NCBI GenBank assembly: GCA_048500355.1
Contig: JASNYD010000006.1
Span: 608,211 to 665,094, forward strand
DNA from: Kofleriaceae bacterium
GTDB lineage: Bacteria > Myxococcota_A > Polyangia > Haliangiales > Haliangiaceae
Length of the DNA stretch: 56,884 bases
Direction of reading: 5' to 3'
Under the pieces are notes generated by a model. The model was not told the origin of the DNA and searched no databases. It was given only the letters and a program-made list of their open reading frames with translations. Of the stretch, positions 20,959 through 47,139 are shown one piece after another (the stretch's first letter is position 1; each line of letters starts with the position of its first letter). A program made the translations under genes and the position numbers.

Positions 20959-22289
20959 ACCGTCCCGCCCGCCTCGCCCTCTGTGCGCTCCTCCTCGCCC
21001 CGGCGCTGGGCTGCGGCGACGGCAAGGCTGGCGGAAAGCCACCGGCGCGCCGCGAGGTCAAGTTCCCGGTGGAGGTCCGCCCGGTCGAGCTGCGCGCCGT
21101 CGAGTACGGCGTCAACGCTCTGGGGACCATCGACGTGTTCGAGCGGGTCCAGGTCACCGCGCGGGTCGCCGGCGTCGTCGACGCGGTCAAGTTCACCGAG
21201 GGCGACGTCGTGACGCGGAACCAGGTCCTGGTCGCGATCGATCCGGCGCGCTTCGCCCTCGCCGAGCGCCAGGCCCGAGCCGCCGTCGATCGCGCGCGCA
21301 TCGCCGTCACCGACGCCGAGGCCGGCCTCGCCCGCCGCGAGTCGGCGGACCGCAGCAACCCCGGCCTCATCCCCGGCGAGGAGCTCGAGACCTGGCGCAA
21401 CCGGGTGGCCGCGGCCAAGGCCGACCTCGCCGAGCGCGCCGTCGCCCGCGATCGGGCAGCCCTCGACCTCAAGGACGCCTACGTCCGCGCCCCCATCGCC
21501 GGCGAGATCGAGTCGCGCCAGGTCGCGACCGGCGCCTACGTCCAGCCCGGCACCGTGCTGGCCACGATGGTCCGCCGCGAGCCGCTGCGCCTGCGCTTCG
21601 ACGTGCCCGAGGCCGAGGCCGCGCCGATGGCCAAGGGCGGGCTCGCCCGCTTCACGATCACCGGTCACGACCACGTCTTCACCGCCACGATCGTGCATGT
21701 GGCGGCCGCCGCCGAACCGACCTCGCGCATGGTCCGCGTCACCGCCGAGATCGATGACCCCGACCGCGCCCGCCTGCGCGCCGGCGGGTTCGCCCAGGTC
21801 GTCGTTCCGGTGGGCGGCACCGCCCAGGCCCCGGTCATCCCCGAGACCGCGATCCGCCCCAGCGAGCGGGGCTTCCTCGCCTTCGTGGTCGAGGGCGAGG
21901 TCGCCCGCGAGCGCATCCTCGAGCTCGGCCTGCGCACCGCCGACGGCCTGGTCGAGGTCCGCCGCGGCCTCGCCTCCGGCGAGCAGCTCGTCGTCCGCGG
22001 CGCCGAGGCGCTGCGCGAAGGCGCGCCGATCCGCCTCGGCGTCAAGCCGGGTCAGGGCGGCCCCGGCGGCCCAGGCGGCCCCGGCGGCCCCGGCGGCCGC
22101 GGCGGCAACGGCGGCCCCGGCGACAAGGGCGGCCCCGGCGGCAAGGGCGGCGACACGCCGGGCCCGCCCGCGGCCGCGCCCGCCCCCACCGCGCCGGCGC
22201 CCGACGCGCCCTCCCCGGCCCCGCCGTCCCCGGCCGCGCCCGCCGGCGCCGCACCCGCCCCCGCCGCGCCGCCCGGGGGGCCGCGGTGA
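20955..22289 (+). CDS. RND efflux periplasmic adaptor (membrane fusion protein), lipoprotein-type, with Gly/Pro-rich C-terminal tail
   Basis: GTG start by GTGA overlap with the OMF stop. Lipobox LLAPALGCGDG. MFP-like beta-barrel and lipoyl motifs (VRAPIAGEIESRQVATGAYVQPGTVLATMV). The tail is GGPGGPGGPGG.... Confidence 0.85.
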   Translation: MNRPARLALCALLLAPALGCGDGKAGGKPPARREVKFPVEVRPVELRAVEYGVNALGTIDVFERVQVTARVAGVVDAVKFTEGDVVTRNQVLVAIDPARFALAERQARAAVDRARIAVTDAEAGLARRESADRSNPGLIPGEELETWRNRVAAAKADLAERAVARDRAALDLKDAYVRAPIAGEIESRQVATGAYVQPGTVLATMVRREPLRLRFDVPEAEAAPMAKGGLARFTITGHDHVFTATIVHVAAAAEPTSRMVRVTAEIDDPDRARLRAGGFAQVVVPVGGTAQAPVIPETAIRPSERGFLAFVVEGEVARERILELGLRTADGLVEVRRGLASGEQLVVRGAEALREGAPIRLGVKPGQGGPGGPGGPGGPGGRGGNGGPGDKGGPGGKGGDTPGPPAAAPAPTAPAPDAPSPAPPSPAAPAGAAPAPAAPPGGPR

Positions 22290-25200
22290 ACATCACCGAG
22301 ATCTGCATCCGGCGACCCGTCTTCGCCTGGATGATCATGCTGGCGACCGTGCTGTTCGGCGTGGTCGCCATCGGCCGGGTCGGCGTCTCGCAGTACCCCG
22401 ACGTCGACTTCCCGACGATCAGCGTCGGCGTCACCTGGGAGGGCGCCGCTCCCGACGTGATGGAGGCCGAGGTCATCGAGGTCATCGAGGAGGCGGTGAT
22501 GCAGGTCGAGGGCGTGCGCGCGGTCAACTCCAGCGCGCGCCAGGGCCAGGCCTCGGTGACCATCGAGCTCGACATCGACCGCCCGGTCGATCTCGCCTTG
22601 CAGGACGTGCAGACCCGCGTCGCCCAGGCCCAGCGCCGGCTGCCGGTCGACATGGATCCGCCGACGATCTCCAAGACCAACCCCGAGGACCAGCCCATCA
22701 TGTGGGTCGGCCTGTCGGGGCCCTACTCGCGCGCGCTCCTCACCGACACCGCCAAGTACGAGATCAAGGAGCGCCTGCAGACCCTGCCCGGCGTCGGCGA
22801 GGTCACGCTCGGCGGCTTCCTCGAGCGCAACGTCCGCATCTGGCTCGACGCCGCCGCCCTCGCCCGCCACAAGCTGACCCCCGCCGACGTCCAGGCCGCG
22901 CTCCAGCGCGAGCACGTCGAGCGCCCCGCCGGCCGCATCGACGCCCGCGGCCGCGAGATCACCGTGCGCGTCCTGGGCGAGGCCTTCGACCTCGCCACGC
23001 TGCGCGACATCATCATCACCCGCATCGACGGCGCGCCCATCCGGCTCGGCGCCGTCGCCGTGGTCGAGGACGGCTTCGAGGACGAGCGACGCATCGCCCG
23101 CAGCCTCGGCTTCCCGGTCCAGGGCATCGGCATCCGCAAGCAGCGCGGCGCCAACGCGGTGGCGGTGGCCCAGGCGGTGCGCGCCGAGCTGGTCAAGATC
23201 AACGACCGCCTGCCCGAGGGCATGGTGGCCGCGGTCAACTTCGACTCGGCGCGCTTCATCGAGGACACCGTCCGCCACATCGAGATCGAGCTGATCATGG
23301 CGGTCCTGCTCACCGCGCTGGTGTGCTGGATGTTCCTGGGCTCGCTGTCGAGCACGCTCAACGTGATCCTGGCGATCCCGATGTCGTTACTCGGGACGAT
23401 CGCCGCGATCTACTTCCTCGGCTTCACCCTCAACACCTTCACCCTGCTCGCGCTGTCGCTCGCGGTCGGGATCGTCGTCGACGACGCCATCATGGTGATG
23501 GAGAACATCTACCGCCACGCCGAGATGGGCAAGCCCGCGGCGCAGGCCGCCCGCGAAGGCACGCGCGAGATCACCTTCGCCGCCCTGGCCGCCACCATCG
23601 CCGTCGTCGCCATCTTCGTGCCGGTCGTGTTCATCGAGGGCGTCACCGGCAAGTACTTCATGCAGTTCGGCGTGACCCTGTCGATCGCCGTGCTCCTGTC
23701 CTACGTCGAGGCCATCACCCTGGCCCCGGCCCGCTGCGCCCAGTTCCTGCGCGCCGGCCGCCACGACCGCATGTGGCTGGGGCAGCAGGTCGACCGCGGC
23801 TTCGCCACCCTGGCCCGCGGCTACCGCTGGCTGCTCACCCGCGCCCTGCGCTGGTCGTGGGTCGTGCTGCTGGCCGCCGCCACCTCGATCGTCGGCCTCG
23901 TCCACGGCGTGCAGTCGCTGCCCAAGGAGATGGTGCCGGCCCAGGACCAGAGCCGGCTCATGGTCCGCATGTTCACCGAGGTCGGGACCTCGCTCGAGGA
24001 GACCGACCAGGTCTTCCGCCAGGCCGAGGAGTTCATCAACGCCCAGCCCGAGGTCCGCCGCACGATGGCGATCGTCGGCGGCTTCGGCGGCGGCAACGTC
24101 AGCCAGGTGATCGTCATGACCTCGCTGGTGCCGCGCTCCGAGCGCCAGGTCAGCCAGGCCGAGTTCGCGACCCGGTTGCGGCGCAACCTCTCCGGCATCG
24201 CCGGCCTGCGGGTGGTGGTCCAGGACCTGTCGCAGTCGGGCTTCACCGCCAACCGCGGCTTCCCGGTCGAGGTCAGCGTGCGCGGCCCCGACTGGCCGAC
24301 GCTGGTCGACGAGGCCCTGCGCCTGCGGGACGCGCTGGCCGAGAGCGGGATGGTGATGGACGTCGACACCGACTACGAGCTCGGCATGCCCGAGCTGCGG
24401 CTGCTCCCGCAGCGCGACCGCGCCGCCGATCTCGGCATCTCCGTCGACGACATCGCCACGGCGGTCAACACGATGATCGGCGGCGTCCGCGCCGGCAAGT
24501 ACAGCTCCGGCGGCCGCCGCGTCGACGTCCGGCTCAAGGTCCGCCGCGATCAGCGAGCCAGCCCCGACGCCCTGGGCCAGCTCTACCTGCGGGCGCGGAC
24601 CGGCGAGATGATCCCGCTCTCGACCCTGGTCGAGCTGGAGGAGCGGCCGGCGCTGCAGTCGATCACCCGGCGCGACCGCGAGCGCGCCATCACGATCACC
24701 GCCAACGTCGCCCCCGGCTACTCCCAGCAGGACGCCCTGACCAAGGTCCGCGAGCTGAGCAAGACCCTGCCCCCCGGCTACAAGGCGGTGCTCGGCGGCG
24801 CCAGCGCCAGCTTCCTCGAGTCGTTCGCGGGGCTCGGCTTCGCCTTCCTGCTCGGCGTGGCCGTCGCCTACATGGTGCTCGGCTCGCAGTTCAACTCGTT
24901 CCTCCACCCGGTCACCGTGCTGACGATCCTGCCGCTGTCGCTGGTGGGCGCGGTGTTCGCCCTGCTCTACAGCGGCCAGACCCTCAACATCTTCTCGATG
25001 ATCGGCCTCCTCCTCCTGGCCGGCATCGTCAAGAAGAACTCGATCATCCTCGTCGAGTACGCCAACAACGCCCGCGACCGCGGCCTCGACGCCCGCGCCG
25101 CGATGATCGAGGCCGGCCCCACCCGGCTGCGCCCCATCCTGATGACCTCGATCGCGACCATGACCGCGGCGGTGCCCGCCGCCCTCGGCCTGGGCGAGGG

Positions 25201-25348
25201 CAGCGAGACCCGCACCCCGATGGCGATCGCCGTCATCGGCGGCCTGGCGGTGTCGACCGCGCTCAGCCTGTTCGTGGTCCCCGCCTTCTACGTCGTCGCC
25301 GACGCCGTGCGCCGCCGCCTCGGCCTGGGCGGCTCGGCCGCGCCCTGA
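22286..25348 (+). CDS. RND efflux permease, AcrB/HAE1-like
   Basis: GTG/TGA overlap with the adaptor gene. MNITEICIRRPVFAWMIMLATVLFGVVAIGRVGVSQYPDVDFPTISV... is a typical AcrB N-terminus. 1020 aa with ~12 TM helices. Confidence 0.95.
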   Translation: MNITEICIRRPVFAWMIMLATVLFGVVAIGRVGVSQYPDVDFPTISVGVTWEGAAPDVMEAEVIEVIEEAVMQVEGVRAVNSSARQGQASVTIELDIDRPVDLALQDVQTRVAQAQRRLPVDMDPPTISKTNPEDQPIMWVGLSGPYSRALLTDTAKYEIKERLQTLPGVGEVTLGGFLERNVRIWLDAAALARHKLTPADVQAALQREHVERPAGRIDARGREITVRVLGEAFDLATLRDIIITRIDGAPIRLGAVAVVEDGFEDERRIARSLGFPVQGIGIRKQRGANAVAVAQAVRAELVKINDRLPEGMVAAVNFDSARFIEDTVRHIEIELIMAVLLTALVCWMFLGSLSSTLNVILAIPMSLLGTIAAIYFLGFTLNTFTLLALSLAVGIVVDDAIMVMENIYRHAEMGKPAAQAAREGTREITFAALAATIAVVAIFVPVVFIEGVTGKYFMQFGVTLSIAVLLSYVEAITLAPARCAQFLRAGRHDRMWLGQQVDRGFATLARGYRWLLTRALRWSWVVLLAAATSIVGLVHGVQSLPKEMVPAQDQSRLMVRMFTEVGTSLEETDQVFRQAEEFINAQPEVRRTMAIVGGFGGGNVSQVIVMTSLVPRSERQVSQAEFATRLRRNLSGIAGLRVVVQDLSQSGFTANRGFPVEVSVRGPDWPTLVDEALRLRDALAESGMVMDVDTDYELGMPELRLLPQRDRAADLGISVDDIATAVNTMIGGVRAGKYSSGGRRVDVRLKVRRDQRASPDALGQLYLRARTGEMIPLSTLVELEERPALQSITRRDRERAITITANVAPGYSQQDALTKVRELSKTLPPGYKAVLGGASASFLESFAGLGFAFLLGVAVAYMVLGSQFNSFLHPVTVLTILPLSLVGAVFALLYSGQTLNIFSMIGLLLLAGIVKKNSIILVEYANNARDRGLDARAAMIEAGPTRLRPILMTSIATMTAAVPAALGLGEGSETRTPMAIAVIGGLAVSTALSLFVVPAFYVVADAVRRRLGLGGSAAP

Positions 25349-25390: not shown

Positions 25391-25774
25391 TCAGCCGGCC
25401 GTGGCCGCGATCAGCGCCAGCACCCGCGCCCGCAGCGCCTGCGGCGCCCACGGCTTGGCGATGACCTCGTCGACGACACCGGCGGCCTGGGCCGCGACCA
25501 GGGTCGGCTCGTCGTCGAAGCCGGTCACGACCACGACCCGCAGCCGGGGCCAGCGCGCGCGCGCGGCCCGGGCCAGCTCGACCCCGGTCGGCCGCCCCAG
25601 GGCCAGGTCGCTGACCAGGGCGTCGGCCGGCCAGCGCTCGAGCACCGCCAGGGCCTCGGTGGCGTCGGCGGCGGCCACCACCTCGGCGGCGCGGGCGAAG
25701 GTCCGCACCATCAGGTCGCGGTTGTACAGCTCGTCGTCGACGACCAGGATGCGCGGCGGCGGACCGTCAGCCAC
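25391..25774 (-). CDS. Response regulator receiver (CheY-like, stand-alone REC)
   Basis: [13 protein letters not shown].....ALVSDLALG...VVVVTGF....KPW has the receiver Asp and Lys positions. It overlaps the 3' end of the upstream HK gene by 8 nt. Confidence 0.85.
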
Positions 25775-27137
25775 CGCCGACCTCGTCGCCGAGGCCCGCT
25801 GCCCGTGATCCTGGCGCGACCGCGAGCGGCGCCGGGGCCTCGACCCGCGGCCGCTCCGCCGCGCCGTCGCTCGGGCCGCGCACCGGGATCGTGACCACGA
25901 ACTCGGCGCCAGCGCCGGCGCGGTTGGCCCAGCGCAAGGAGCCGCCGTGGGCGCGCACGATGTTGGCGCAGATCCACAGCCCGAGGCCGGTGCCCTCGCC
26001 GACCTCCTTGGTGGTGAAGAACGGATCCGAGATCTTCTCCATCAGGTCGGGCTTGATGCCGGGCCCCGAGTCACAGATGGTGACGCGGATCGCCGCCCCG
26101 TCGTCGACGGTCTCGATCGCGACGTCGATCCACCCGGTGCCGGCGATGGCCTGGGCGGCGTTGGTCAGGATGTTCATGAACACCTGGTTGACGTGGCCGG
26201 CGTTGCACAGCACCCGCGGCACGCCGGGCGCGATCCGGCGCCGGACCTCGACCCGGTTCTTGAGCAGGGGCCCGATCAGGTTGAGCGTGGTGTCGATGCC
26301 GCCGACGATGTCGGTCTCGGCCAGCTCGTTACCCCCGGTGCGCGCGAAGCTCTTGAGATCGGCGACGATGTCGGCGGTGCGCTCGGCGCCGGCCCGGATC
26401 GACCGCAGGAGCTTGCGCCAGTCGGCGACCAGGAAGTCGAGCTCGACCTCGGCCTTGAGCGCGTCGAGCGCGGCCCGCAGCTCGGGCGGCAGCGCCGCGC
26501 CATCGACCAGCGCCACCAGCCGCAGCAGGTCCTCCATGTACTGGCCGAGGAAGTCGACGTTGCCGTAGACGAAGTTGATCGGGTTGTTGAGCTCGTGGGC
26601 GATGCCGGCCACCAGCCGGCCCAGCGACGACATCTTCTCCTGGTGGACGAGCTGGGCCTGGGCCGCGCGCAGCTCGTCGGTGCGCTCCCGCACCTTCTCC
26701 TCGAGGTCGCCCTTGGCCCGCCGCTCGTGCTCGAGCGCGACCTTGAGCCGGCGCTGGATGCGGACGTCGGCGGTGACGTCGCGGTAGGTCTCGACCACCA
26801 CCGCCTCGCCGTCGTCGAGCTCGACCGGGGCCGCGGTCACGATGAAGGTGAGGTCCTCGCCGTCGCCGCGGCGGGCGCCGATCTCGTCGACCCGAAGCCG
26901 CCGCCCGACCTCGCGCACCTTGCAGCCCAGGCACGCCTGCTCGCAGATCTCGAGCTTGAACAGCTCGTGGCAGCGGGCCCCGGCCTTGACCTTCTCGGCG
27001 AGCTGGCGCCCGCGCAGGCCGGTCAGCGCCTCGTAGGCCTGGTTGTAGTGGAGCACCCGACGCTCGGCGTCGAGGACGACGGCGGCGTCGACGCTGCCAT
27101 CGAGGAGCTGGGTGATCTGGTGGAACAGCTTGGCCAA
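25767..27137 (-). CDS. PAS-domain sensor histidine kinase (cytoplasmic), with a 4-Cys PAS
   Basis: H-box: [21 protein letters not shown]-box: [16 protein letters not shown]-boxes: DSGPGI and GTGLGL. The N-terminal PAS carries C-x8-C-x3-C-x2-C ([19 protein letters not shown]). The ORF-track start is TTG at 27137 (see the PAS 4-Cys finding). Confidence 0.9.
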
Positions 27138-27186
27138 GCGGGGGGCTCGGGGGGCGGAGCGCGGGATGGTGCCGGATCGGTCCGGA

Positions 27187-27684
27187 TCAGGCCTCCGCCA
27201 GGAACGACAGGTAGCGCTCGGGCAGGTCGTCGAACTCCATGGTCGCGCCGCACTGCGAGCAGGCGAACTGCGGGATCTCGTGCTTGCCGCCGGTCTGCGT
27301 GACGTCGACCAGCTTCTCCTCCTCCTGGCCGCAGCGGTCGCACACGTAGGGCGCGAAGAAGGAGCGGATGCGAGCGTTGCCGCGGAAGTTGTAGATCATG
27401 TTGAGCTGGGTCACGATCGCCGGCGAGCAGTGCGAGAACGACAGCTCGGTGACGTGGGGCAGATCGCGGACGAAGTTGACCCACTCGCGCACGCCGCAGC
27501 TGTTGATGCGGCGGACCTCGCCGAGCTGGAACGCCACGGCGCCGCGCAGCCGCCGCCGCAGCTCGACGAAGTCGGCGTTCTCGTCGATCTCCCCCACGAA
27601 CTCGACGGTGGTCAGGCCGGGGCGTTCGCGGATGCGCCACGACAGCGCGACCGGCTCGGGCCCCCGCACGTCCGCCGTCGCCAT
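27187..27684 (-). CDS. STAS-like (anti-sigma-antagonist fold) domain fused to a C-terminal C4 zinc ribbon
   Basis: GGAGTGAGG RBS. STAS-like core: ...[15 protein letters not shown]...[22 protein letters not shown]...[15 protein letters not shown]. Zinc ribbon: CDRCG...CSQCG. It is a paralogue of 33748..34695. Confidence 0.7.
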
Positions 27685-27688
27685 CGCC

Positions 27689-28612
27689 TCACTCCATCCG
27701 CTCGGGCGACTTCTCGAAGTGCTGGCGGACCTCGGTCCGCGCCGCCTCGTCGAGCGACGCCGGCTCGATCAGCACGTCCTTGACGTCGAAGCGCACCGGC
27801 TCGGGGCTGGCGAAGACGCCGCGCTTGACGACGCGGCCCATGCGCCCGGCGAGGCCCTGGTAGGCGGCCTTCGACGGCGAGGCCCAGCCCGAGATCGCGC
27901 CGCCGCCGCCGAAGCGGGTCACCGCGGTCCCGACCGAGGCGACCGTCGCCGCCGGCACCTTGGCGTTGACCTGGACGAAGGCGGGGTTGGGCACCGCGCC
28001 GGTGTCGAACAGCTTGGCCAGGCCCTTCTGCGAGCCGATGGGCGCGAACACCGCCTGCGCGCCCTTGTACGACGCGACCTCGGCGACCGCGGCCGTCAGG
28101 TCGGGCTTGCCGACCCGGCTGGCGAAGAAGCCGGCGTCGACCTCGGACTCGAGCATGGCGTTGTCGACGAAGCCGTTGTCGTTGCAGCCGGTCTGCACGA
28201 ACGCCAGCTTCTTGCCCTCGAGCGCCTTCATGTCGCCGCCGGCGCCCGAGAACAGGGCGTAGGTGCGGGCGCCGCTGCCGCCGATCTGGGCGTTGGCCAG
28301 CAGGTTCCAGCCCAGGTTGGTGGCGTAGCACTGGGCGTCGACGATCGCGAAGTCGACGCCGGCGCTCTTGAGGGCGCCGAACGAGGCGAACGACTTGGCC
28401 TCGGTCTTGACCCCGGTCTGGGCCTCGATCGCCTTGGCCAGGCCCTGGACGTAGGACAGGCGGTCCTGGGCGGTGCCGAACTCGACCGACGGCGCGTAGA
28501 TGCCGATCACCAGCTTGCCGGGCGCCGGCTGGGTGGTGCCGGGACGGACCACCAGGGCGACGGCCAGGGCGACCAGGCAGAGCGTCGGGATGATGATGCT
28601 GAGCTTGCGCAT
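27689..28612 (-). CDS. Periplasmic substrate-binding-like protein (PhnD/SsuA-type fold) with signal peptide
   Basis: AGGAG RBS. Signal [22 protein letters not shown]. Its stop is 4 nt from the next gene start. Confidence 0.7.
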
Positions 28613-28631
28613 GGTGTGCTCCTGGGTGCCG

Positions 28632-31283
28632 CTAGTAGCCGTAGATCCGCTTCTTGGCGTCGATCCACTTCTGGAGATCGCGCGCGCCGGCGACCCGGCC
28701 CGACGCCGAGCGCCAGGCCTCGTAGGCGTCCTTGGGCCGCCCCGCCTGGTCGTAGAGGATGCCGAGGTTGACCAGCGCCTCGGGCGGCTGGCCGCGCAGC
28801 GCCTCGAGGGCGCCGATCTTGCTCTTGTCGAGCGACAGCACCGCGCGGTTGTTGACCAGGCGACGCTTGGCGTCGTCGCTGGCGAAGCGCTCGGCGCTGT
28901 CGAGGGCCTTGGCCGCGGGCCCGGTGCGGCCGTTGCGCCAGTGGTCGAACGCGACGTACTCCCACGACGACGCGATCAGGTCGCGGACCTTGGTGCTGAA
29001 GGCGCCGGTGGCGCTGCCGAGCAGGCGGGTGAAGGTCGCGGCCGCTCGTTCGCGCAGGGTGGCGTTGTTCGAGCGGTAGTCGGCGTAGGCGCCGAAGAAC
29101 TCGGTGCCGACCTTGGCGTAGGGCGCCTTGAGGTACGCGGCCTGGTTGCCCTTGGCGGCGAGCTGCTTGAAGTACTTGCCGGCCTCGGCGGTGTCGCCCT
29201 TCTCGAGCAGGGCCAGGGCGTAGCTGAACTCGAAGGCCGCTGGCTCGGTGCCCTTGAGCAGCGAGGGCTCGCGGGTCGCGCGCTCCAGGTCGGCCACCGC
29301 CTCCGCGTCCTTGCCGGCCTTGATCGCCCGCCAGCCGCGGCGGAACAGGGCGAGGGCGAGGTTGCGCTTGGCCGCGGGCGCCACCTCCGGCGACTGGGCG
29401 GCGAAGCCCACGGCGATGCCGAGCTTCTCGACCGCCTCGTCGAGCTTGGTGTCGACCAGCAGCGGCGCCCACTCGGTGTAGATCTCGGCCTTCATCAGGT
29501 TCGCCTGGTTCTTGGTGGCCTCCTCGTCGGCCTCCGCGAAGTGCTGGGCGGCCCGCGCCTTGTCGGGCTTCTTCGCGCACAGGTGGGCGCGGCCGGCCAG
29601 GCGGTTGTAGAGCATGGAGTAGCCGCGGCGGTTGTCCTTGATGCGGTCGAGGTAGCGCAGCCCGCCGTCGCAGTCGCCGCGGTCGATGGCCAGGACCGCC
29701 AGGTTGAGCGCGACCATCGGCGAGCGGTCGTCGACCTTGAGCGCCTCCTCGAGGAAGGCGGCCGCGGTCTTGCCGTCACCCTTGGTGAAGGCGCCGGCGG
29801 CCTGGGCGTTGATGGTCTCGACGAGCGCGCGCCGGATCTGCAGCTCCCTGGGTCGCAGGGCCACCGCGGCCTCGAAGCGCTGGCGCGCCACCACCAGCTT
29901 GCCCTGGTTGTACTGGGCCTTGGCGCTGACCAGGTAGAGCTCGGCGGCGAGCTCGGGCGGCGCGCTGGCGAACGCCTTGCCGGCGATGAGCTGGTCGGCG
30001 GTCTTGGCGGCGTCGCCGTCGCGCCGGGCCGCCAGGTAGGCGCCGCCGAGCTCGATGCCGAGGTCGAAGCTCGACGGGTCGAGCTGGCGGCCGGCCTCGA
30101 GCTTCTCGATGGCCAGCGCCAGGTTGGTGTTCTGGGCGCCGGTCGACGGCATGCGGCGGTAGGTCTTGCCCAGCCGCACGCTGAGCTCGCTGGCGCCCGC
30201 GCCGCCGCGCATGAGCTTCTCCGCCTGCAGGTAGGCCGCCAGGGCCTGGCCCCAGTCGCGCTCCTGGAAGTAGGCGTCGCCGATGAGGATGTAGCCGCGG
30301 GGCTCGTTCTTGCGCTTCTTCAGGTACTCGTTGGCGGCCTGCCGCGCCCGCTGCGGCAGCTTCTTGGCCAGGTACGCCGAGCCGAGGTTGAAGTAGACCG
30401 AGCCGTTGCTGTCGATGTTGCGCGGGTTGCCCTGCAGGCGCTCGCACACGGTGATGGCCTGGTCGAACTTGCGCAGGCCGGTGTAGGCGGCGCACAGTCC
30501 GATGTCGGCGTTGGGCTGGGCGTACTGGGCCTTGCCGTGCTTGCGGACGACGGTCTCGAACTCCTTGACCGCGCGCTCGTAGTCCCGGTTGGCGGCGTCG
30601 TGCTGGCTCTCGCGCACCGCCATGCGGCCGCGCGCCAGGTACGAGAAGCCGAGCCGGATGCGGGGCAGGACGTCGCGGCTCTCGCGATCGGCGGGCCGCG
30701 CCGCCAGGTACGCCTCGTAGGCGGTGATCGTCTTCAGCGGATCGCGGTTGAAGTAGAACTCGCCCAGGATCTGCTGGTTGGAGAACAGCGAGGCCCGCTT
30801 GGCCACCGCCTTCTCGGCGACCGCGACCGCGCCCGGCTTGTCGCCGGTCGCCCACAGGAGCAGCGCCTCCTGCTCGAGGACCTCGGCGGCCTCGGGGTGG
30901 GTGCGCTTGGCCACGGTGCGGATGAACTCGAGCCCGCCCTTGTAGTCGGCCTGGATGATGAAGATCGCCGCCCGCTTGCCGTAGGCCTCGGGCGGGACCT
31001 GGGTCGGGGCCGAGCGGATGGCCGAGTCGAAGGCCGCGGCGGCGCGTCGCCAGTTGGCCTCCTCGAAGTAGCGATCGCCCTCCTTCAGGTCCTCGGCCAC
31101 GTCGGCGACGGCGGTGCCGGCGGCGAGGAGGACGAGCACGAGCCCGAGGGCGGCGGCCCAGGTGCGGGCCAGGCCGCGCGTGGCGCAGGACGTTCGCGTT
31201 GGTTCGTTCACGGGTTCCTCGTTCACGGGTTCCTCCACGGGGGCCGTCGCGGCCCGGGCCTGCCAGCGCTCAGCGTTGCGCAC
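28632..31283 (-). CDS. Secreted TPR-repeat protein (~880 aa); start uncertain (GTG at 31283 or downstream GTG giving MNEPTRTS...)
   Basis: Signal/TM ARTWAAALGLVLVLLAAGTAVADVA. Many TPR-like units follow. A 15-bp tandem duplication (EEPVNEEPVNE) sits at the 5' end. Confidence 0.8.
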   Translation of the reverse strand: MRNAERWQARAATAPVEEPVNEEPVNEPTRTSCATRGLARTWAAALGLVLVLLAAGTAVADVAEDLKEGDRYFEEANWRRAAAAFDSAIRSAPTQVPPEAYGKRAAIFIIQADYKGGLEFIRTVAKRTHPEAAEVLEQEALLLWATGDKPGAVAVAEKAVAKRASLFSNQQILGEFYFNRDPLKTITAYEAYLAARPADRESRDVLPRIRLGFSYLARGRMAVRESQHDAANRDYERAVKEFETVVRKHGKAQYAQPNADIGLCAAYTGLRKFDQAITVCERLQGNPRNIDSNGSVYFNLGSAYLAKKLPQRARQAANEYLKKRKNEPRGYILIGDAYFQERDWGQALAAYLQAEKLMRGGAGASELSVRLGKTYRRMPSTGAQNTNLALAIEKLEAGRQLDPSSFDLGIELGGAYLAARRDGDAAKTADQLIAGKAFASAPPELAAELYLVSAKAQYNQGKLVVARQRFEAAVALRPRELQIRRALVETINAQAAGAFTKGDGKTAAAFLEEALKVDDRSPMVALNLAVLAIDRGDCDGGLRYLDRIKDNRRGYSMLYNRLAGRAHLCAKKPDKARAAQHFAEADEEATKNQANLMKAEIYTEWAPLLVDTKLDEAVEKLGIAVGFAAQSPEVAPAAKRNLALALFRRGWRAIKAGKDAEAVADLERATREPSLLKGTEPAAFEFSYALALLEKGDTAEAGKYFKQLAAKGNQAAYLKAPYAKVGTEFFGAYADYRSNNATLRERAAATFTRLLGSATGAFSTKVRDLIASSWEYVAFDHWRNGRTGPAAKALDSAERFASDDAKRRLVNNRAVLSLDKSKIGALEALRGQPPEALVNLGILYDQAGRPKDAYEAWRSASGRVAGARDLQKWIDAKKRIYGY

Positions 31284-31299
31284 CGGTGCTCGCCGGTGC

Positions 31300-32988
31300 T
31301 CAGAAGACCTTGCCGATGACGAGCGTGATGTCGTCCTTGCGGATGTTGTCGCCGAAGAAGTTGGCGGCGTCGGTCACGACGGCGTCGCGGATCTCCCCGG
31401 CCTCGAGCGCGGCCGCCCGCCGCACCGAGGCCCGGAAGCGCTTCTCGCCGTACTCCTCGCCGCCGCTCGACTCGCACTCGACGATGCCGTCCGTGTACCA
31501 GACCAGGATGTCGCCGGGCATGAGCTCGGTGGTCTTGACCTCGTACTTCGACTCCTTGAGGTCGCCGAGCCGGTTGCCGCGGATCATCAGCGAGCCGAAC
31601 TCGCCCTGCCCGCCCTCCGAGGTCCGGTACAGGTAGGGGAAGTTGTGGCCGGCGTTGGCGTACGTGATCGTGCGCCGGCGGGTGTCGATGACCGAGGCGA
31701 AGCAGGTCATCACGAACTTGCGCTTGGCGCTCTGGTAGATCGCCGAGTTCATGATCTCGAGCAGCTTGGCCGGGTCGACGTTGTCGCCGTTGACGGCGCG
31801 GGCGACGTCGCACGCCGCCTTGGCCGCCGCCGTGATCATCGCCGACGGCACGCCGTGGCCGGTGACGTCGCCGATCACGACCAGGACCTTGTCGCCGACC
31901 ATGTCGTGCCACGTCCACCAGTCGCCGCCGCACTGCGACGCCGGCTGGAAGTAGCCGGCGAAGCGCAGCGTGCCCTTGTCGACCGGATCGTGGGTCGGCA
32001 CCAGGGTCTCCTGGATCGTCCGCGCCACCTCGAGCTCCTTCTCCATCGTCGCCTTCTCGGCGGTCTGCTGGAGCAGCACGAGGAGCTGGTCGGCCATGAA
32101 GTTGAAGTTCTCGCCGAGCAGGCCGAGCTCGTCGGTCGACTTGACCTCGACGCGGGCGGCCAGATCACCGCGGGCGATCTGGTCGGCCTTCCACGCCAGG
32201 AGCTTGATGGGCTTGGAGATCTGGACGCCCTGGAAGATCGCGAGCAGGGTGCCGATGAGCACGAACAGCGCGCCGAAGGCGCCGGTGCGTAGCGCGGCCT
32301 TGCGCGCCTCCTCGTCCTTGAGCTTGGCGCTCTCGCGGGCGAAGGTGTCGACCGGCGACAGGTCGTAGCCGAAGACCACGTAGCCCTGACGGTTCTCGCC
32401 CGGGTCGTCGGCCGCGGCGGCGGCCGGGCTCCAGCCGACCTGCTCGCCCGAGAACACCGGGTAGGCGAACAACAGCAGCTTGCCGTCCTCGCCGGCGGTC
32501 CAGTCGAGCGAGACGCTGATCTCGGGCTCGGTCGCGGCGGCGCGCCGCTTCCACTCCTCCAGCACCTTGGCCCACGACGCGTGCTTGACCCGCTCGCCCT
32601 CGACCTCGCCGGCGGCGTCGCAGCGGTCGTCCTTGCGCCGGCAGTACTTGATGAGGTTCTGGACGCGACCGACGACGTAGACCAGCTTGAGCTCGGCGTC
32701 GTGCTTGAGGGTGTCGTCGACGATCTCCTTGATCTCGACGTCCTGGGTGTTGATGAAGTACGAGCGCAGGCCCTGGCCGAAGAAGATCGTGTTGGTCTCG
32801 CCCTTGCTCTCGAGCTGCTTGCGGTACTCGGTGATCTTGTCCTTGGCCGCGCGATCGTAGGCCTCGCGGATGTTGCACGCGTTCAGCAGACCGAAGCCCA
32901 CCACCGTGAGGAGGATCAGGAACGTGGTGGTCAAGATCATCTTGACCGAGATGCTCAAGCCGCCGCGCTTTGCCATTGGCCATGCCAT
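31300..32988 (-). CDS. Membrane sensor PP2C-family protein phosphatase (SpoIIE/RsbU-like) with HAMP domain
   Basis: N-terminal TM, an extracytoplasmic region and a second TM ([17 protein letters not shown]), then HAMP ([43 protein letters not shown]), then PP2C motifs (GGDWW...[14 protein letters not shown]...YANAGH...WYTDG). Confidence 0.85.
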
Positions 32989-33158
32989 GTTACGGCGTCT
33001 GGTCGGAAGGGGTCAACGAAGCGTCCCCGCGACCGGTCGGTCCATGTCCGGTGTAAAGTTCCACATGCGCCGATGTGGGTGTCCCGCGCGCACCGCCGCG
33101 CGCCTCGGCCGTCGGCGCCAGGGGTCGCATTGGCGAGCGCGCGACGCGCTCTGCTACG

Positions 33159-33725
33159 ATGCCGGGGATGGAGTCCCACCCCGCGCTGACCCAGTTCCTG
33201 ACCGAGTTCAAGCGCGTGGCCAGCGCCATCGTCGACAGCTACTTCATCGTCGACACCGAGCGCCGCATCGTCGACTTCAACCGCGCGTTCTTCGCGATGC
33301 TGCCGCGGCAGGTGGCGCGCGGCCTCAAGGGCAAGCGCTGCTTCGAGGTCATCGAGCTCAACATCTGCCGCAGCGAGTGCATCGCCCAGCAGTGCTGGAC
33401 CGACAACCGACACGTCCGGCTCGACGAGATCAGCGGCAAGGTGCTGGGCGAGCCCGACGCCAAGGAGCTGCGCTTCATCCTGTCGGCGGTGCCGATCACC
33501 GACGAGAGCGGCCAGCACGTCGGCGCCCTCGAGATCCAGCGCAACGTCACCGACGAGGCGGTGGTCCAGGTCAAGTACCAGGAGATGCTCGAGAACGAGG
33601 CCCGCGAGCGCGAGCGCCTCGCCAACCAGATCCGCGCCCGCACCAAGGAGCTGCTCGAGACCAACCAGCTCCTGCTCAAGACCCAGAAGGAGCTCCTGTC
33701 CTACAAGAAGGGCCTCTCGGCCTGA
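33159..33725 (+). CDS. Stand-alone PAS-domain protein with 4-Cys motif and C-terminal coiled coil
   Basis: It is homologous to the N-terminal PAS of the kinase at 25767..27137 ([15 protein letters not shown] versus [15 protein letters not shown]). The Cys motif is [21 protein letters not shown]. The start may be ATG 33159 or 33168. Confidence 0.65.
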
Positions 33726-33747
33726 GCGCCGGGTGCCCCCCCCGGGG

Positions 33748-34695
33748 CTACTTGCCGCTGAAGAGCAGGAACGCCAGCACGCCGATGGCCGCGAGCAGCA
33801 CGACCACGAGCACGTAGATCACGGCGCTCGACTTGGGCTGGGTCAGCGCCGGGCGCTCGGCGGGGACCGGCGTGGAGAAGCTGCCGCTGCCGGGGTTGGT
33901 GCCGGGCGAGGTGAAGTTGCCCGGCCGGCTGCCCGGGTTGGTGCCCTGGAACGAGCCCACCGGGCGCATGCCGGGGTGGGTGGTGGTCGTCACCGGCGTC
34001 ATCGACGGCCGGCTGCCCGGCTTGGCGGTGATCGACGGCGAGCTGCCGCTGGGCCGCGAGATCGACGGCAAGGACGGCACGCTGGGCAACGACGACACCG
34101 ACGAGCTGTGCAGGCTCGAGGTGCCGGTGCGCGAGCGGATCTTGGACTTCTCGCCGTTGTCACCGGAGGCGAACTCCTTGATGACGCCGTTGATCTTGTC
34201 GGGCTCGGCGATCTTCTTCTGGTTCGACAGGAACGCGAAGTACGAGTCGGCCATGTCGTCGAAGTCCATGACCAGATCGCACTCGTCGCAGCGACAGGTC
34301 GGCGGCTCGTGCGGCCCCGAGCCCATGTCGGCCGCCTCGACGAGCAGCACCTTCTCCTCGTCGCACTCGGGACAGAAGTACGGGACGTAGAAGCTCTTGA
34401 CCACGCCCGACCCGGTGAAGTTGTTGACGAGGTTGATCTGGGCGACGATCGCCGGCGAGCACTCGACGAGCACCGCGCGGGTCGCCTGGGTCTCGAGCTT
34501 GCCGAGCCAGTTGACCCAGTCGCGCACGCCACACGAGTTGATGCGCTCGATCTCGCCGAGATCGATCACCGCCGTACCCGCCGGGATCTTGTCGGTCAGC
34601 GCGGTGAGCTCGTTGTCCTCGTCGATGACACCGCTCAGCTTGACGTAGCTGACGTCGTCGCGGTGGTGGACCGACGCCTGAAACTTCTGGCTCAT
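33748..34695 (-). CDS. STAS-like plus C4 zinc-ribbon protein with Ser/Pro-rich linker and C-terminal TM anchor; paralogue of 27187..27684
   Basis: GGAGACG RBS. Shared motifs with the paralogue: [38 protein letters not shown]...[15 protein letters not shown]-terminal TM: [22 protein letters not shown]. Confidence 0.7.
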
Positions 34696-34712
34696 TGCGT
34701 CTCCGTCGACAC

Positions 34713-34735
34713 GTAATTCACGTAGCCGTGATTAC
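34713..34735. promoter_or_regulatory. Inverted repeat gtaattcacg-tagc-cgtgattac in an AT-richer 140-bp spacer
   Basis: 9/10 matching arms with a 4-nt spacer, sitting 18 nt upstream of the STAS-TM gene ATG (34695) and ~100 nt downstream of the giant TPR stop. It could be an operator, or a terminator for the TPR gene. Confidence 0.3.
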
Positions 34736-34833
34736 ACCTGTACCCTAGAACCTTCAACTCGCAAAGCATATCGTGATCGCGCCAGCGGGATCCACTCCAT
34801 GGACGTCGATCGTGGCCCGTCCCCCGCCTCGTG

Positions 34834-37800
34834 TCACGCCTGGTTCGGGGCAGCGGTGAGGTAGTCGCGTAGGCGCTGGTAGTCGTCGGACAGATAGAAG
34901 CGCACCAGGTCGGCCCCGCCCAGCACCGCGCCCAGGGCCACGGTGGCGTCGTGAGACAGGAGCATCTCGCCGGTCAGGCGCGCGATCATCCAGGTGGCGG
35001 CGGCGAAGTCGTCGCAGGCGAGGAGCCCGCCGCGCTTGGCGGCGCCCAGCATGCCGTCGATCCAGGCGTCGCCGTCGACGTCGCGGCCCCAGTTCTGGTG
35101 GCGCTCGATGACCTTCTGCGCCCGCTTGGACAGCCCCTTCACGAACTCGTTGGTCGGCGCCGGCCGCTCGCCCTCGGGCAGCAGCAGCGACTTCATGAAG
35201 TTGCCGAGCTCGGATCGCTGGCGACGGCCGAGGTGGTGGAGGAAGGCGTACCCGCCCCGCAGCGCCTCGAAGGCCCAGCCGAGGAGGAAGCGGCGCGGCC
35301 CGTCGCCCTCGCCGACCAGCGACCGGTCGATCACCACCAGGCGGCGGGGCGCCGCCACCAGCGCCACCAGGCCGGGCACGCGCTCGCCCACGAAGACCTC
35401 GGCCTCGATGGCGTCGAGCCGGGCGATGTCGGCGACCGCGACCTTGAGCCCGGGGTCGTCCATGCCCTGTACCGGGATCAGGTTCTCCCCCAGCATCGGC
35501 GGCGGGTACAGGCCGCCCAGCTCGGCCGCGGCCGCCGCCAGCACCTCGCCGAACGGATCGCGCGCCGCCGTCGTCACCAGCAGCCGCATCCGCATCTCGT
35601 CGTCGAGCGCCCGCCGCATCGGGTGGTAGGGCAACGACGCCCGCACCTTGGCGGCGGCGCCGCGATCGGACTCCTCGGCGAAGCCGAGCTGCTCCATCAC
35701 CGTCAGCGCCCGCGCCGCCCGCTCCGGCTCGCCGACGCGGGTGTAGTACGACGACAGGAGGCGGTAGGCCATCGCGTTGTGGATGTCGCGATCCACGACC
35801 TTGCGCAGCTCCGAGATCGCCTTGCCCGGGTCGTCGATGGCGTAGATCTCGGCCAGCGCCACACGATCGGGCGGGCTGTCGTCGACGCCCAGGATGCCGC
35901 GGTAGGCCTCGATCGCCGCCGGCCGGTCGCCGGACGCGAGGAGGATGCGGGCCAGGCCGCGCTGCAGCGGCACCGCCGCCGGCGGCCCGCCCTTCTCCAT
36001 CGCGGCGTGGGCGGCGTCGATGAGCAGGCCCTCGGCGCCGCGCTGGTCGCCGGCCTCGGCGGCGCGCCGCGCCAGGGCCAGGGCCGGCGGCGCGTAGCCC
36101 GGATCGTACTCGCTGGCCCGGCGGTACTGCGAGGTCGCGCCGCGAGGATCGCCCGAGGTCTCGGTGATGCGCCCGCGGTAGTAGTAGTAGCGGGCCAGGT
36201 TCTCGGGCGAGATCGCCGAGCCCGGCGCCGCCGCCAGCTCGATCACGCGATCGATCGCCGCCCGGGCGTCGGCGTGGCGCCCCAGCAGGTAGTGCTCCTG
36301 GGCCAGGCGGTAGTAGGCCTCCTCGTGGATCGGGTCGATGCGGATGACCTCGCGCAGGACCGAGATCGCGCGGTGGGGCTCCATCTCGCAGTCGGCGTGG
36401 ATCTCGGCCTGCCGCATGAGCGCGCCGACGCGCACCGCCTGCGACACGTCGCTGTGGTTCAGGAACTTGACGATGGCGTCGACCGCGTGGCTCCACCGCC
36501 GCATGTTGAGGTGGAGCGTGATCATCGCCGACAGCACCTCGAAGTCGTCGGGCGCCAGCGCCACCGCCTCGGCGTAGAGCTGCTGGGCCTGATCGAGGTC
36601 GCCCTCGCGCTCCTTCATGCCGGCCTGGGCGACGCGGACCCGGGCCAGGAAGGGCCCGGCGTCGTCGCGCTTCTTGTAGAGCTTGTCGAGCTCGCGGTAG
36701 ATCGCGTCGAAGTCCCAGGCCTCGGGGTGCTTGCGCTGCAGGTCGAGCAGGCCGTCGAGGGCCGACAGGTTGTTGGGCTTGATCTCGAGGGCGACGATCA
36801 GGCTCTCGGCGGCGCCGCGGGCGTCGCCGGTCATGTGGGCGACCACGCCGCGCCGGCGATAGAACTCGCTGCGGGTGTTGGGATCGCCCTCGCGCATGGC
36901 CTTGACCGCCAGCGCCTGGGCCAGGGGCAGCGCCCGCTGCCACTCCCCGGCGTCGAAGTAGTGCTCGAACAGGGCCTGGTTGGCGGGCAGGCACTCGGGA
37001 TCGACGGCGAGCGCGCTCTCGTAGTAGTGCATCGCCCGGTCGGGCTGGCCGAGGCGCGACTCGTAGATGCGGCCGATCTGGGCGAAGACGCCGGCCCGCT
37101 CCTTGTCGTCCTGCCACAGCTTGACCTCGAGCTCGAGGGTCTGGATGACCCGCGGCCAGTCCTCGCGCCGGCGGTAGAGGTCGCGCAGGCCGTGGACCGC
37201 CGGCAGGCACGAGGGCGAGGTCTTGATCGCCGCGTCGTAGTAGCGGATCGCGTCCTCCTCCTTGCCGAACTTGGCCTCCATCACCGAGCCGCACTTGAAG
37301 TAGAGCAGCGCCTTGAGGTTGCGATCGGTGGTGACCCGGATCTGGCGGCGGGTGACGTCGACGAACTCGGCCCACTGCTCCGTCGACTCGTAGATGCGGC
37401 CCAGGGCCTCGAGCGCCTCCTTGTTGGCGGGCGCGATCTCGAGGATGCGCTGGTAGTGCTCGACCGCGCGCGACTCGTCGCGCAGGCCCTCCTCGCTGAT
37501 CTGGGCGATGCGCTTGTGCAGGGTGGTCGCGGCGTCGCCGGCGGGGGCGGTGGCCAGGCGGTGGCGCAGGACCTCGACCAGCTTGCCCCAGTCGTGGTTG
37601 CGCTCGTACCAGCGCTCGAGCGCGTCGAGGGCCTCGACGTCGGACGGATCGATGTCGAGGATGTGCTGGTAGAGGCGGGCGGCCTCGCCGAAGTCGCGCA
37701 TCTTGGCGGCGGCGACCCGGGCGGCGCGGCGCAGCGACTCGAGGCGGCGCTCGTCGTCGCGGGTCAGGCCGGCCCGCTTCTCGTAGACCCCGATGAGCCC

Positions 37801-41265: not shown

Positions 41266-41399
41266 CCCGGAGCGGTGTCGGGGAACGGAGGATGGTGCGA
41301 GGGGGCCCCCGGCGCGCGCACCCGCCGCCGCCGCCGCTACCCCGCCGGCTCCCGGCCAGGGTTTGACCGTCGCGATCGGCGTACCGTATCCTGGAGGCG

Positions 41400-42338
41400 A
41401 TGGTGGCCCCCACGCGCGCCGTGTGCGTCACCTCCAGCGTCGCGTTGCGGCGGACCCTGCGCCGCGCCTTCCACGCCACCGGGACCCAGGTCGAGTTCGC
41501 CGACGCCGTCGGCGGCGCCGATCCCGCGGACGCCGTCGTCGTGATCGATCAGCCGACCTACGCCGGCCTCGCCGACGCCGACCGCGCCACCCTGGAGCGC
41601 GGCCGCGCGCTCATCGTCATGGGCGCGTCGCTCGAGGACGAGGCGGTGCTCGACGCCATGCGCCGGGAGCGCTGGAACCACGTCATCCGCGAGGCCGAGG
41701 ACCCCGACGACGACGAGCTCGTCGTCACCTCGGTCAAGCTGTCGTCGGGCGACATCTTCGGGCTCGAGAAGTACCTGGCGTGGGGCGTGAAGGTGAACGA
41801 GGCCACGATCGACACCTACGAGGCCAAGCGCGAGGCGCTGCTCGCGGTCACCGCCTCGGCCCGCGACGGCGGCGCCCGCCGCCCCACGATCGCGCGCATC
41901 GAGAGCGTCGTCGACGAGCTGCTGATGAACGCGATGTACGATGCGCCTGCGGTGGCCACCGGCAAGGCCGTGCCCACCCCGCGCCGCATCACCGACCCGG
42001 TCGGCGACGCCGAGGCCCGCCTGCGCTGGGCCGCGGACGGTCGCTACTTCGCGGTCTCGGTCGAGGACCGCTACGGCGCGCTGGCCAAGGACGTCATCCT
42101 CGACCACCTGCTGCGCGCCCGCCAGGAGCGCGGGCGGCCGCGCGCCCCCGACGCCCCCGGCGCCAGCGGCGGCGCCGGCCTCGGCCTCTACTTCATCCTG
42201 TCGTCGGTGACGCGCTTCATCGCCAACCTCGATCCCGGCGTCCGCACCGAGGTCATCTGCCTGTTCGACCTCAAGCAGGGCGGCCGCGACGCCGACGCCT
42301 GCGCCCGCTCGCTGCACGTCTTCGGTCCGCGCGCGTGA
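41400..42338 (+). CDS. RsbW/SpoIIAB-like GHKL ATPase (HATPase_c_2-type anti-sigma regulatory factor or Ser kinase) with N-terminal receiver-like pseudo-domain
   Basis: GGAGG RBS. N-box-like ESVVDELLMNAMYDA. G2-like GGAGLGLYFILSS. The N-terminus has REC-like alternation (AVVVIDQ) but lacks the acidic pocket. Confidence 0.6.
   Translation: MVAPTRAVCVTSSVALRRTLRRAFHATGTQVEFADAVGGADPADAVVVIDQPTYAGLADADRATLERGRALIVMGASLEDEAVLDAMRRERWNHVIREAEDPDDDELVVTSVKLSSGDIFGLEKYLAWGVKVNEATIDTYEAKREALLAVTASARDGGARRPTIARIESVVDELLMNAMYDAPAVATGKAVPTPRRITDPVGDAEARLRWAADGRYFAVSVEDRYGALAKDVILDHLLRARQERGRPRAPDAPGASGGAGLGLYFILSSVTRFIANLDPGVRTEVICLFDLKQGGRDADACARSLHVFGPRA

Positions 42339-43636: not shown

Positions 43637-43637
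<1 letters not shown>
42387..43637 (-). CDS. Polytopic membrane protein, putative ABC exporter permease partner
   Basis: Internal ATG (aa 117 of ORF 42387..43985) overlaps the ATPase stop in an ATGA junction. It has ~10 hydrophobic helices. Upstream ORF sequence is Arg-rich noise. Confidence 0.65.
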
Positions 43638-44380
<743 letters not shown>

Positions 44381-44411
44381 CGGCGCCGACCCTACCAAGA
44401 AACCCGCGGCC

Positions 44412-47053: not shown

Positions 47054-47139
47054 GCCGCGCCAGCATAGCAGCAGGGCCCGCGGCGATCGGGGTCCGGACC
47101 GGGGGCGCGCGGCCGGCGGCCCTCGGATATAGTCCCGCC

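Follow-up and report, generated by a model that had tools for sequence, protein, structure and literature searches.

Paired Cys-triad PAS and STAS-zinc-ribbon proteins in a conserved signalling cassette of a Kofleriaceae bacterium: a candidate sigma-independent partner switch

Gene organisation of the locus

We analysed a stretch of 56,884 nucleotides (nt) from a Kofleriaceae bacterium (GenBank assembly GCA_048500355.1, contig JASNYD010000006.1, positions 608,211 to 665,094 of the forward strand), hereafter called the window, which has a G+C content of about 75% and encodes two pairs of neighbouring genes. Each pair combines a PAS protein carrying a characteristic set of cysteines with a protein predicted to consist of a STAS domain followed by a zinc ribbon (STAS-ZnR). 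An initial annotation, made from the sequence alone, had singled out these two pairs and proposed that their members are functionally coupled, as a sensor plus a switch. Both pairs lie where that annotation had placed them. Specifically, at locus A the STAS-ZnR_A gene is found directly upstream of a histidine kinase (HK) gene, at a distance of 49 nt, and at locus B a stand-alone PAS gene (PAS_B) converges on the gene of a second STAS-ZnR protein (STAS-ZnR_B-TM), with a gap of 22 nt. The data presented below strongly support the proposed functional coupling.

A scan for relatives, restricted to one genome per species, returned 147 stretches encoding relatives (named L0xx in the following), the best 80 of which were kept together with 10-kb flanks. 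These 80 loci all derive from metagenome-assembled genomes (MAGs), and their labels are mostly Kofleriaceae, Haliangiales, Polyangia or Myxococcota. Locus L072 (CALQBK020000032.1), which contains a myxobacterial-type c6 gene (see Table 1), a STAS-ZnR gene and a PAS-GGDEF module, has been deposited as part of a 'Bifidobacterium breve' MAG, and its contig is almost certainly mis-binned; L063, L070 and L074 carry the deposited labels Gammaproteobacteria, Bdellovibrionales and Omnitrophota, respectively. Because of these odd labels, the taxonomic range of the system is uncertain.

The coding frames between 25391 and 42338 are clear by G+C content at third codon positions (GC3), and this region is one conserved signalling cassette, larger than the two pairs (Table 1). 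The locus A operon, located on the minus strand, comprises in order the genes of a PP2C phosphatase, a TPR protein of 883 amino acids (aa), a 307-aa protein, STAS-ZnR_A, the HK and a response regulator (RR), with gaps of 49 nt or less. The phosphatase heading this operon is weakly similar to SiaA, and PAS_B is transcribed divergently from it. The annotated starts of the HK (exact look-up) and of c6 agree with the corresponding NCBI proteins, and the NCBI version of PAS_B is 9 nt shorter (185 aa). The hydrophobic tail of STAS-ZnR_B can be seen in its translation, and an orthologue of the giant TPR protein precedes STAS-ZnR_B in 39 loci.

Table 1. Genes of the conserved cassette in the window, with the evidence on which each assignment is based
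Feature	Coordinates	Strand	Evidence and remarks
Single-domain RR	25391..25774	-	Pfam Response_reg, E 1.7e-17; syntenic; 8-nt overlap with the kinase gene
HK, 456 aa	25767..27137	-	Pfam: N-terminal PAS, then stalk helix, HisKA, HATPase_c
STAS-ZnR_A, 165 aa	27187..27684	-	Predicted STAS fold, Ser62, Cys63, Cys86, C-terminal zinc ribbon
307-aa protein with signal-peptide-like N-terminus	27689..28612	-	Syntenic in 33 loci; 4 nt before STAS-ZnR_A
TPR protein, 883 aa, N-terminal hydrophobic segment	28632..31283	-	TPR matches; operon member; syntenic in 42 loci
Membrane HAMP-PP2C (SpoIIE family) phosphatase	31300..32988	-	Pfam SpoIIE, E 2.8e-42; HAMP, E 7e-14
PAS_B	33159..33725	+	Pfam PAS_9, 28.8 bits, above cut-off; no output domain
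STAS-ZnR_B-TM	33748..34695	-	STAS and zinc ribbon (residues 1-160), Ser/Pro-rich linker, C-terminal transmembrane anchor
Giant TPR protein, 2143 aa	34834..41265	-	TPR family matches; upstream of STAS-ZnR_B, divergent from c6
c6, 312 aa, receiver-like N-terminus and GHKL (HATPase_c_2-like) C-terminus	41400..42338	+	Profile of the c6 family, Pfam, motifs, PDB

The gap between the convergent PAS_B and STAS-ZnR_B genes (33726-33747) is a G+C-rich palindrome, CCCCCCCCGGGG, with no run of T residues, and the two transcripts may overlap or have a bidirectional hairpin in common. Two sigma-70-like hexamer pairs occur in the 17 kb, compared with 0.3 expected from shuffled sequence; these promoter-like sites (33016..32987 on the minus strand and 41363..41392 on the plus strand) directly precede the start codons of the PP2C and c6 genes. 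The second hexamer ends within 0-8 nt of the ATG, so that transcripts starting there would have no leader or a very short one. The plus strand also carries, opposite the Ser/Pro-rich linker of STAS-ZnR_B, a 185-aa open reading frame (ORF; 33833-34390, GC3 0.98), which is probably an artefact of base composition in this low-complexity region. The flanks, 19258-25348 (plus strand) and 43637-51072, look unrelated to the cassette: the upstream one encodes an outer-membrane efflux protein and an AcrB-type RND pump, and the downstream one an ABC ATPase, a DUF4139 protein and a 1397-aa AAA_16-HEAT repeat protein.

Conservation of the PAS/STAS-ZnR pairing

Pairwise alignment bore out the paralogy of both partners: STAS-ZnR_A and STAS-ZnR_B share 39% identity over 149 aa (E 9e-39), and the PAS domain of the HK shares 30% identity with PAS_B over 172 aa (E 4e-23), in an alignment which extends into the helix following the PAS core. 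The cysteine spacings given in the initial annotation were also correct, with C56-x8-C65-x3-C69-x2-C72 at the N-terminus of the HK (bases 26922-26972) and C61-x8-C70-x3-C74-x4-C79 in PAS_B. An acidic residue is found at position +2 from the first Cys in both proteins (C56-H-E58 in the kinase and C61-F-E63 in PAS_B). In addition, PAS_4 and PAS_9 score above the Pfam gathering thresholds in both, so that the PAS side of the assignment stood in the profile searches.

The description of these domains as four-Cys PAS domains has to be narrowed. The general feature is the triad C-x8-C-x3-C, which the alignment shows in 62 of the 64 kinase orthologues, the other two having a C-x8-C-x5-C variant, and which is present in all the PAS_B orthologues seen. 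The fourth Cys of the kinase (x2-C) is confined to a clade near the window and is replaced elsewhere, where some orthologues have an additional Cys, or a His next to the first Cys; PAS_B always carries x4-C.

A six-frame scan of the loci with hidden Markov models (HMMs) gave 131 STAS-ZnR domain matches and 112 PAS domains carrying the triad. Nearly all the latter are adjacent or close to a STAS-ZnR gene, and five of them lie more than 3 kb away, at a locus edge or with intervening genes. A triad-bearing ORF was found within 3 kb of a STAS-ZnR ORF in 89 of 100 cases, and within 300 nt in 78 of 100. Among 353 ORFs located more than 3 kb from the module, a single chance match to the Cys pattern outside a PAS protein was found, the other 14 pattern-bearing ORFs at this distance being PAS genes of the module whose STAS partner had been missed by the ORF caller or cut off at the edge. 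The two families therefore co-localise more often than by chance.

The arrangement of each pair is also conserved. The STAS-ZnR_A orthologues have a co-directional PAS kinase gene downstream, in most cases no more than about 70 nt away, in almost all loci and down to 40% STAS identity, and pair B is kept throughout the Haliangiales/Kofleriaceae-like loci. Altogether, the PAS/STAS-ZnR adjacency was found in about 70 species-level genomes; in about a dozen of the genomes (L032-L047) pairs A and B are immediate neighbours, not separated by a PP2C/TPR block.

The output domain of the PAS partner is variable, being HisKA-HATPase in most loci, a coiled coil only in pair B, and GGDEF, as recognised by Pfam, in L068, L072 and L074; a GGDEF output is likely also in L063, L065 and L066, judging from gene size and from similarity restricted to the PAS. 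The C-terminal strand of the PAS and the stalk helix are conserved over all three output types. Since the output varies and the PAS with its helix remains constant, it appears that the PAS module itself is the element coupled to STAS-ZnR, and we consider this the strongest argument for the coupling. In conclusion, the persistence of the adjacency in these species-level genomes, at low STAS identity and across three output architectures, strongly supports a functional coupling of the Cys-rich PAS and the STAS-ZnR, for which 'sensor plus switch' is a fair summary.

The additional proposal of the initial annotation, that both partners were duplicated together, could not be demonstrated. Both pairs are old, since the distant locus L061 carries a separate orthologue of each; they differ in gene orientation, and neighbour-joining trees of the STAS and PAS domains were poorly resolved and recovered no single joint duplication. 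A co-duplication of the pairs is plausible.

A profile built from the two PAS domains of the window was also searched against 1.84 billion representatives and retrieved 377 matches at E ≤1e-10. The triad is present in 73 of the 150 best matches, often in tandem, and 36 longer matches include 11 kinases, 7 chemoreceptors, 4 GGDEF proteins and 3 sigma-54 activators having the architecture and the motif of OrpR. Because triad PAS domains are retrieved in kinases, chemoreceptors, cyclases and sigma-54 activators, the window PAS belongs to a widespread class of sensors which probably bind an iron-sulfur (Fe-S) cluster; the tie with STAS-ZnR is limited to one subclade of this class.

In the structural model of PAS_B (predicted local distance difference test score 87.6), an N-cap helix and the PAS core are followed by a C-terminal helix of 57 residues (131-187), and the top Foldseek matches are nearly all PAS/LOV domains with flanking helices. 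This C-terminal helix aligns with the linker between the PAS and the dimerisation and histidine phosphotransfer domain of the kinase, and PAS_B thus resembles the kinase reduced to sensor and stalk, with no catalytic core. The identity of PAS_B, 82-93% across more than 120 clusters, suggests several constrained surfaces.

The STAS-ZnR family and the candidate phospho-switch components

The STAS alpha/beta fold of STAS-ZnR is assigned by fold prediction. In the model, Ser62 (INS62CG) starts the helix 62-73, that is, it occupies the N-terminus of helix 2, the canonical position of the STAS phospho-site, and all of the 100 family members aligned have Ser62, Gly64, Val65 and Arg66. Six Cys residues are invariant in the 165-residue protein: the zinc ribbon of STAS-ZnR_A has the form C115-x2-C118 ... 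C142-x2-C145, and Cys63, beside Ser62, and Cys86, in a C-S-P-A-I-V loop, are specific to the family. The ribbon segment gives weak matches to the RPB9, TFIIS and Lar ribbons, all below thresholds. A search of the PDB with the STAS-ZnR profile returned no STAS protein and chance zinc-finger matches only; a few distant members have a weak precomputed match to PF13466. STAS_A is conserved at 70% or more across more than 100 clusters.

Searching for the family in cultured or named organisms yielded only MAG and metagenome proteins annotated as hypothetical, including, for STAS-ZnR_A, an identical hypothetical protein of a Kofleriaceae MAG. The cassette proteins are everywhere annotated as hypothetical or by generic domain names, and a literature search combining STAS, zinc ribbon and kinase found no publication on the family.

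In a further, third class of paralogues, about 750 aa long, a STAS-ZnR is fused to a Hanks-type Ser/Thr kinase (L061 6721-8838, L064 6259-8433, L069 6534-8930, L070 3932-6187 and L078 6011-8263). Its members keep Ser62 and the zinc ribbon and lack Cys63, and Cys86 is gone except in L064; a weak second STAS-like match follows the first domain.

When the ORFs of the 80 loci were clustered without prior labels, a family of about 320 aa emerged, named c6, whose gene overlaps the STAS-ZnR start in at least 16 distant loci (within L061-L080). The HMM of this family matches the window at 41367-42335 (E 3e-92), which rules out the 307-aa protein of locus A as the c6 equivalent. A PhnD-like identity of this 307-aa protein is likewise unsupported, as no match was found in Pfam, NCBIfam or PDB. 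The N-terminus of c6 resembles response-regulator receivers (PDB E 1.6e-4), and GHKL motifs are conserved in its C-terminus (N-box ELLMNA, DxxG and GGAGLGL). These features suggest that c6 phosphorylates or binds the STAS-ZnR proteins, and make it the likely candidate for the missing kinase of the system.

PP2C genes are present in most related loci. In the branch without PAS genes, a PP2C domain ends a giant protein encoded directly upstream of STAS-ZnR, and in L084 and L085 the PP2C is found about 4 kb upstream of STAS-ZnR. No sigma-factor or anti-sigma-factor domain was found among the scanned cassette genes (25391-42338). Since PP2C, GHKL and Hanks-kinase neighbours or fusions recur together with the invariant Ser62, these data point to a partner-switching module. 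The initial annotation, largely correct in its interpretation, had missed both the SpoIIE/PP2C gene heading the locus A operon and the c6 gene upstream of STAS-ZnR in distant genomes.

In the giant proteins beside STAS-ZnR, which are about 1700 aa long, a Ser/Thr kinase, a STAND ATPase (AAA_16), TPR and GAF are followed by a C-terminal SpoIIE/PP2C domain (L068 11552-16681; also L063, L065, L071, L076, L080, L083 and L084). In L075 (10457-11584), L077 and L079, the convergent gene downstream of STAS-ZnR encodes a patatin-like phospholipase, not a PAS protein.

Proposed mechanism, rival explanations and known systems

The reading we favour, with moderate confidence, is that the cassette acts as a sigma-independent partner switch in which the STAS-ZnR antagonists gate effectors carrying an Fe-S-type PAS. 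The genes, their paralogy and synteny, the conserved motifs and the predicted folds are observed; from them we infer that Ser62 is phosphorylated, that c6 acts as a kinase, that a metal or cluster is bound, and that STAS and PAS proteins are in contact. The two STAS-ZnR paralogues would be the switch proteins, copy A soluble and copy B tail-anchored in the membrane; c6 would phosphorylate Ser62, and the HAMP-PP2C would dephosphorylate it, its extracytoplasmic domain being possibly fed by the periplasmic 883-aa TPR and the secreted 307-aa proteins. Each STAS-ZnR would bind, in one phospho-state, the PAS-stalk module of its neighbour, a partner defined by the PAS and the following stalk helix and not by the output domain. 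In this way, copy A would tune the HK and the single-domain RR, and copy B would either retain the output-less PAS_B at the membrane or set it free. PAS_B might also pair with the kinase through their common stalk. Given the OrpR-like triad with its acidic residue at +2, the effector would combine a redox or Fe-S input with the phospho-switch.

Several observations weigh against this reading. Neither STAS-ZnR of the window reaches a curated STAS threshold in Pfam or NCBIfam: STAS_2 appears on STAS-ZnR_B only (14.6 bits against a cut-off of 29.2, E 0.038), and TIGR00377 gives about 18 bits against 53.45 (E 0.0018 for STAS-ZnR_B), but is repeated in three independent members. On this side, therefore, the initial assignment did not pass the profile searches and rests on fold prediction. 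An hhalign comparison of the family with SpoIIAA puts Ser62 on Ser58 and pairs CSPAIV with ISPAV, and is not significant (E 0.14). As for c6, its HATPase_c_2 match falls below the curated Pfam cut-off (E 5.8e-4), sub-threshold matches being obtained in two members of the family, its hhalign match to SpoIIAB covers the N-box only and is not significant (E 0.065), the acidic pocket and the acceptor Asp of its receiver are not conserved, and in the window its gene is separated from copy B by 6.7 kb and from copy A by 13.7 kb. Loci L032-L047, in which the two pairs are adjacent, show no PP2C within 10 kb. About ten family members have no PAS neighbour (L050, L055, L071, L073, L075-77, L079, L080, L081-85) and adjoin only PP2C or c6, which makes PP2C a more universal partner of STAS-ZnR than the PAS. 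Finally, the likeness to OrpR described below is one of published motif positions.

In a competing explanation, which we regard as possible, if rather doubtful, the STAS-ZnR would never contact the PAS protein and would only bind or titrate c6, or be a substrate of the PP2C, the PAS kinase or cyclase forming a separate branch. The kinase could then feed the receiver-like domain of c6, as HptB feeds HsbR. That c6 and PP2C are the most widespread STAS-ZnR neighbours, including in loci without a PAS, that c6 has a receiver-like domain, and that kinase and RR share an operon all fit such a scheme. It is harder to reconcile with the conservation of pair B as a tight two-gene unit with neither enzyme adjacent, with a neighbour that keeps PAS and stalk while its output is a kinase, a GGDEF domain or none, and with a c6 receiver lacking a conserved phospho-acceptor pocket.

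An origin of the two pairs as a chance by-product of segmental duplication in a paralogue-rich genome, with no coupling, is highly improbable. Myxobacterial genomes contain many PAS kinases and duplicated signalling genes, and the differing orientations of the pairs would agree with this origin; the synteny data already contradict it, with adjacencies persisting in dozens of species-level genomes at identities down to 40-45% and with PAS_B kept at 82-93%, and STAS_A at 70% or more, over more than 100 clusters. It is also quite unlikely that STAS-ZnR is a thiol/metal redox or nucleic-acid-binding protein, acting as a co-sensor or as a transcriptional output, in which the STAS domain is only a scaffold and no phosphorylation occurs. 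The density of invariant Cys residues, the weak resemblance to the RPB9, TFIIS and Lar ribbons and an RR devoid of a DNA-binding domain can be cited in its favour. Against it, the STAS phospho-site position always holds Ser62 with the S-x-G-V-R motif, genes or fusions of the PP2C, GHKL and Hanks-kinase types reappear systematically, the ribbon matches are all sub-threshold, and copy B is membrane-anchored.

A variant which retains the partner switch adds a second input: the STAS-ZnR would be gated by thiol redox as well as by Ser62 phosphorylation, and would pass the result to the Fe-S-sensing PAS effectors. We consider it unlikely. By STAS topology, Cys63 and Cys86 should lie side by side at the phospho-site, where a thiol/disulfide or metal site could decide Ser62 phosphorylation or partner binding. 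In its extreme version, Cys63 or Cys86 would give the PAS triad its fourth ligand across the interface. Such an intermolecular cluster is weakened by the PAS-less members, which keep both residues, and by the kinase-fused members, which lack them in PAS-containing loci; since the PAS-less members keep Cys63 and Cys86, a thiol switch inside STAS-ZnR is likelier than a cluster shared with the PAS.

Non-sigma targets of partner switches are increasingly found, and few of their architectures have been worked out. If our preferred reading, a phospho-switch gating PAS effectors, holds, the cassette would add a type of antagonist, STAS plus zinc ribbon, for which there is neither a Pfam or NCBIfam family nor a characterised member; it would link a Ser-phosphorylation switch to two-component and cyclic di-GMP outputs through one PAS-stalk module, and would give the OrpR-type Cys-triad PAS a second biological context. 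The hosts are uncultured Kofleriaceae and Haliangiales lineages. The proteins are small, partly soluble and extremely conserved, and Ser62 phosphorylation, Fe-S content and STAS-PAS binding are therefore testable in vitro.

With regard to the sensor, the PAS of OrpR from Desulfovibrio vulgaris, which has C52/C61/C65 together with D/E54, holds a redox-sensitive [4Fe-4S]2+ cluster (PMC8359166). The spacing C52-x8-C61-x3-C65 is identical to that of C56-x8-C65-x3-C69 in the HK, the acidic residue stands at +2 in both, and both triads map to the same helical part of the N-terminal PAS. OrpR differs in being a sigma-54 AAA+ activator, whereas the output in the cassette is a kinase, a cyclase or nothing; moreover, the window copies have a fourth Cys, and no STAS partner has been described for OrpR. 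The kinase NreB likewise has an N-terminal PAS, with a [4Fe-4S] cluster in Staphylococcus and a three-Cys [2Fe-2S] site in Bacillus licheniformis (PMC13478379). Its cluster is held by three or four Cys in the same part of the fold, and a three-Cys site whose fourth ligand is labile has a precedent in NreB. The NreB motif, C-x2-C-x11-C(-x2-C), differs from the x8/x3/x2 or x8/x3/x4 spacing of the cassette PAS domains, and NreB has no STAS partner.

With regard to the switch, the cassette has in common with SpoIIAA/SpoIIAB/SpoIIE and RsbV/RsbW/RsbU a predicted STAS fold with a Ser at the N-terminus of helix 2 and an SPAxV-like motif, as well as a SpoIIE-family phosphatase and GHKL-like components. 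In contrast to these classical systems, it contains no sigma or anti-sigma gene, its STAS protein carries a zinc ribbon, and the neighbour is a PAS effector. In the HptB-HsbR-HsbA-HsbD system of Pseudomonas, the cyclase HsbD is a target of the STAS protein HsbA (PMC5085249). Here too a STAS antagonist would be set by a response-regulator-type, RsbW-like kinase protein and by PP2C activity, and would act on non-sigma targets such as a diguanylate cyclase. SypE/SypA resembles the Hsb system. In the cassette, unlike in Hsb, the putative kinase and the phosphatase are two distinct proteins; the receiver appears degenerate, a zinc ribbon is fused to the antagonist, and the partner is defined by an Fe-S-type PAS.

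By analogy, a precedent for a STAS-like switch acting on the stalk of an effector is offered by SiaABCD of Pseudomonas aeruginosa, where unphosphorylated SiaC, a STAS-like protein, binds the stalk of the cyclase SiaD (PMC8457831; PMC7647112). Compared with SiaABCD, the switch protein of the cassette is not of the DUF1987 type and has a fused zinc ribbon with additional invariant Cys residues, the putative kinase carries a receiver-like domain, the effector has an N-terminal Cys-triad PAS and is, in the window, a histidine kinase, and the cassette holds two paralogous pairs of switch and partner.

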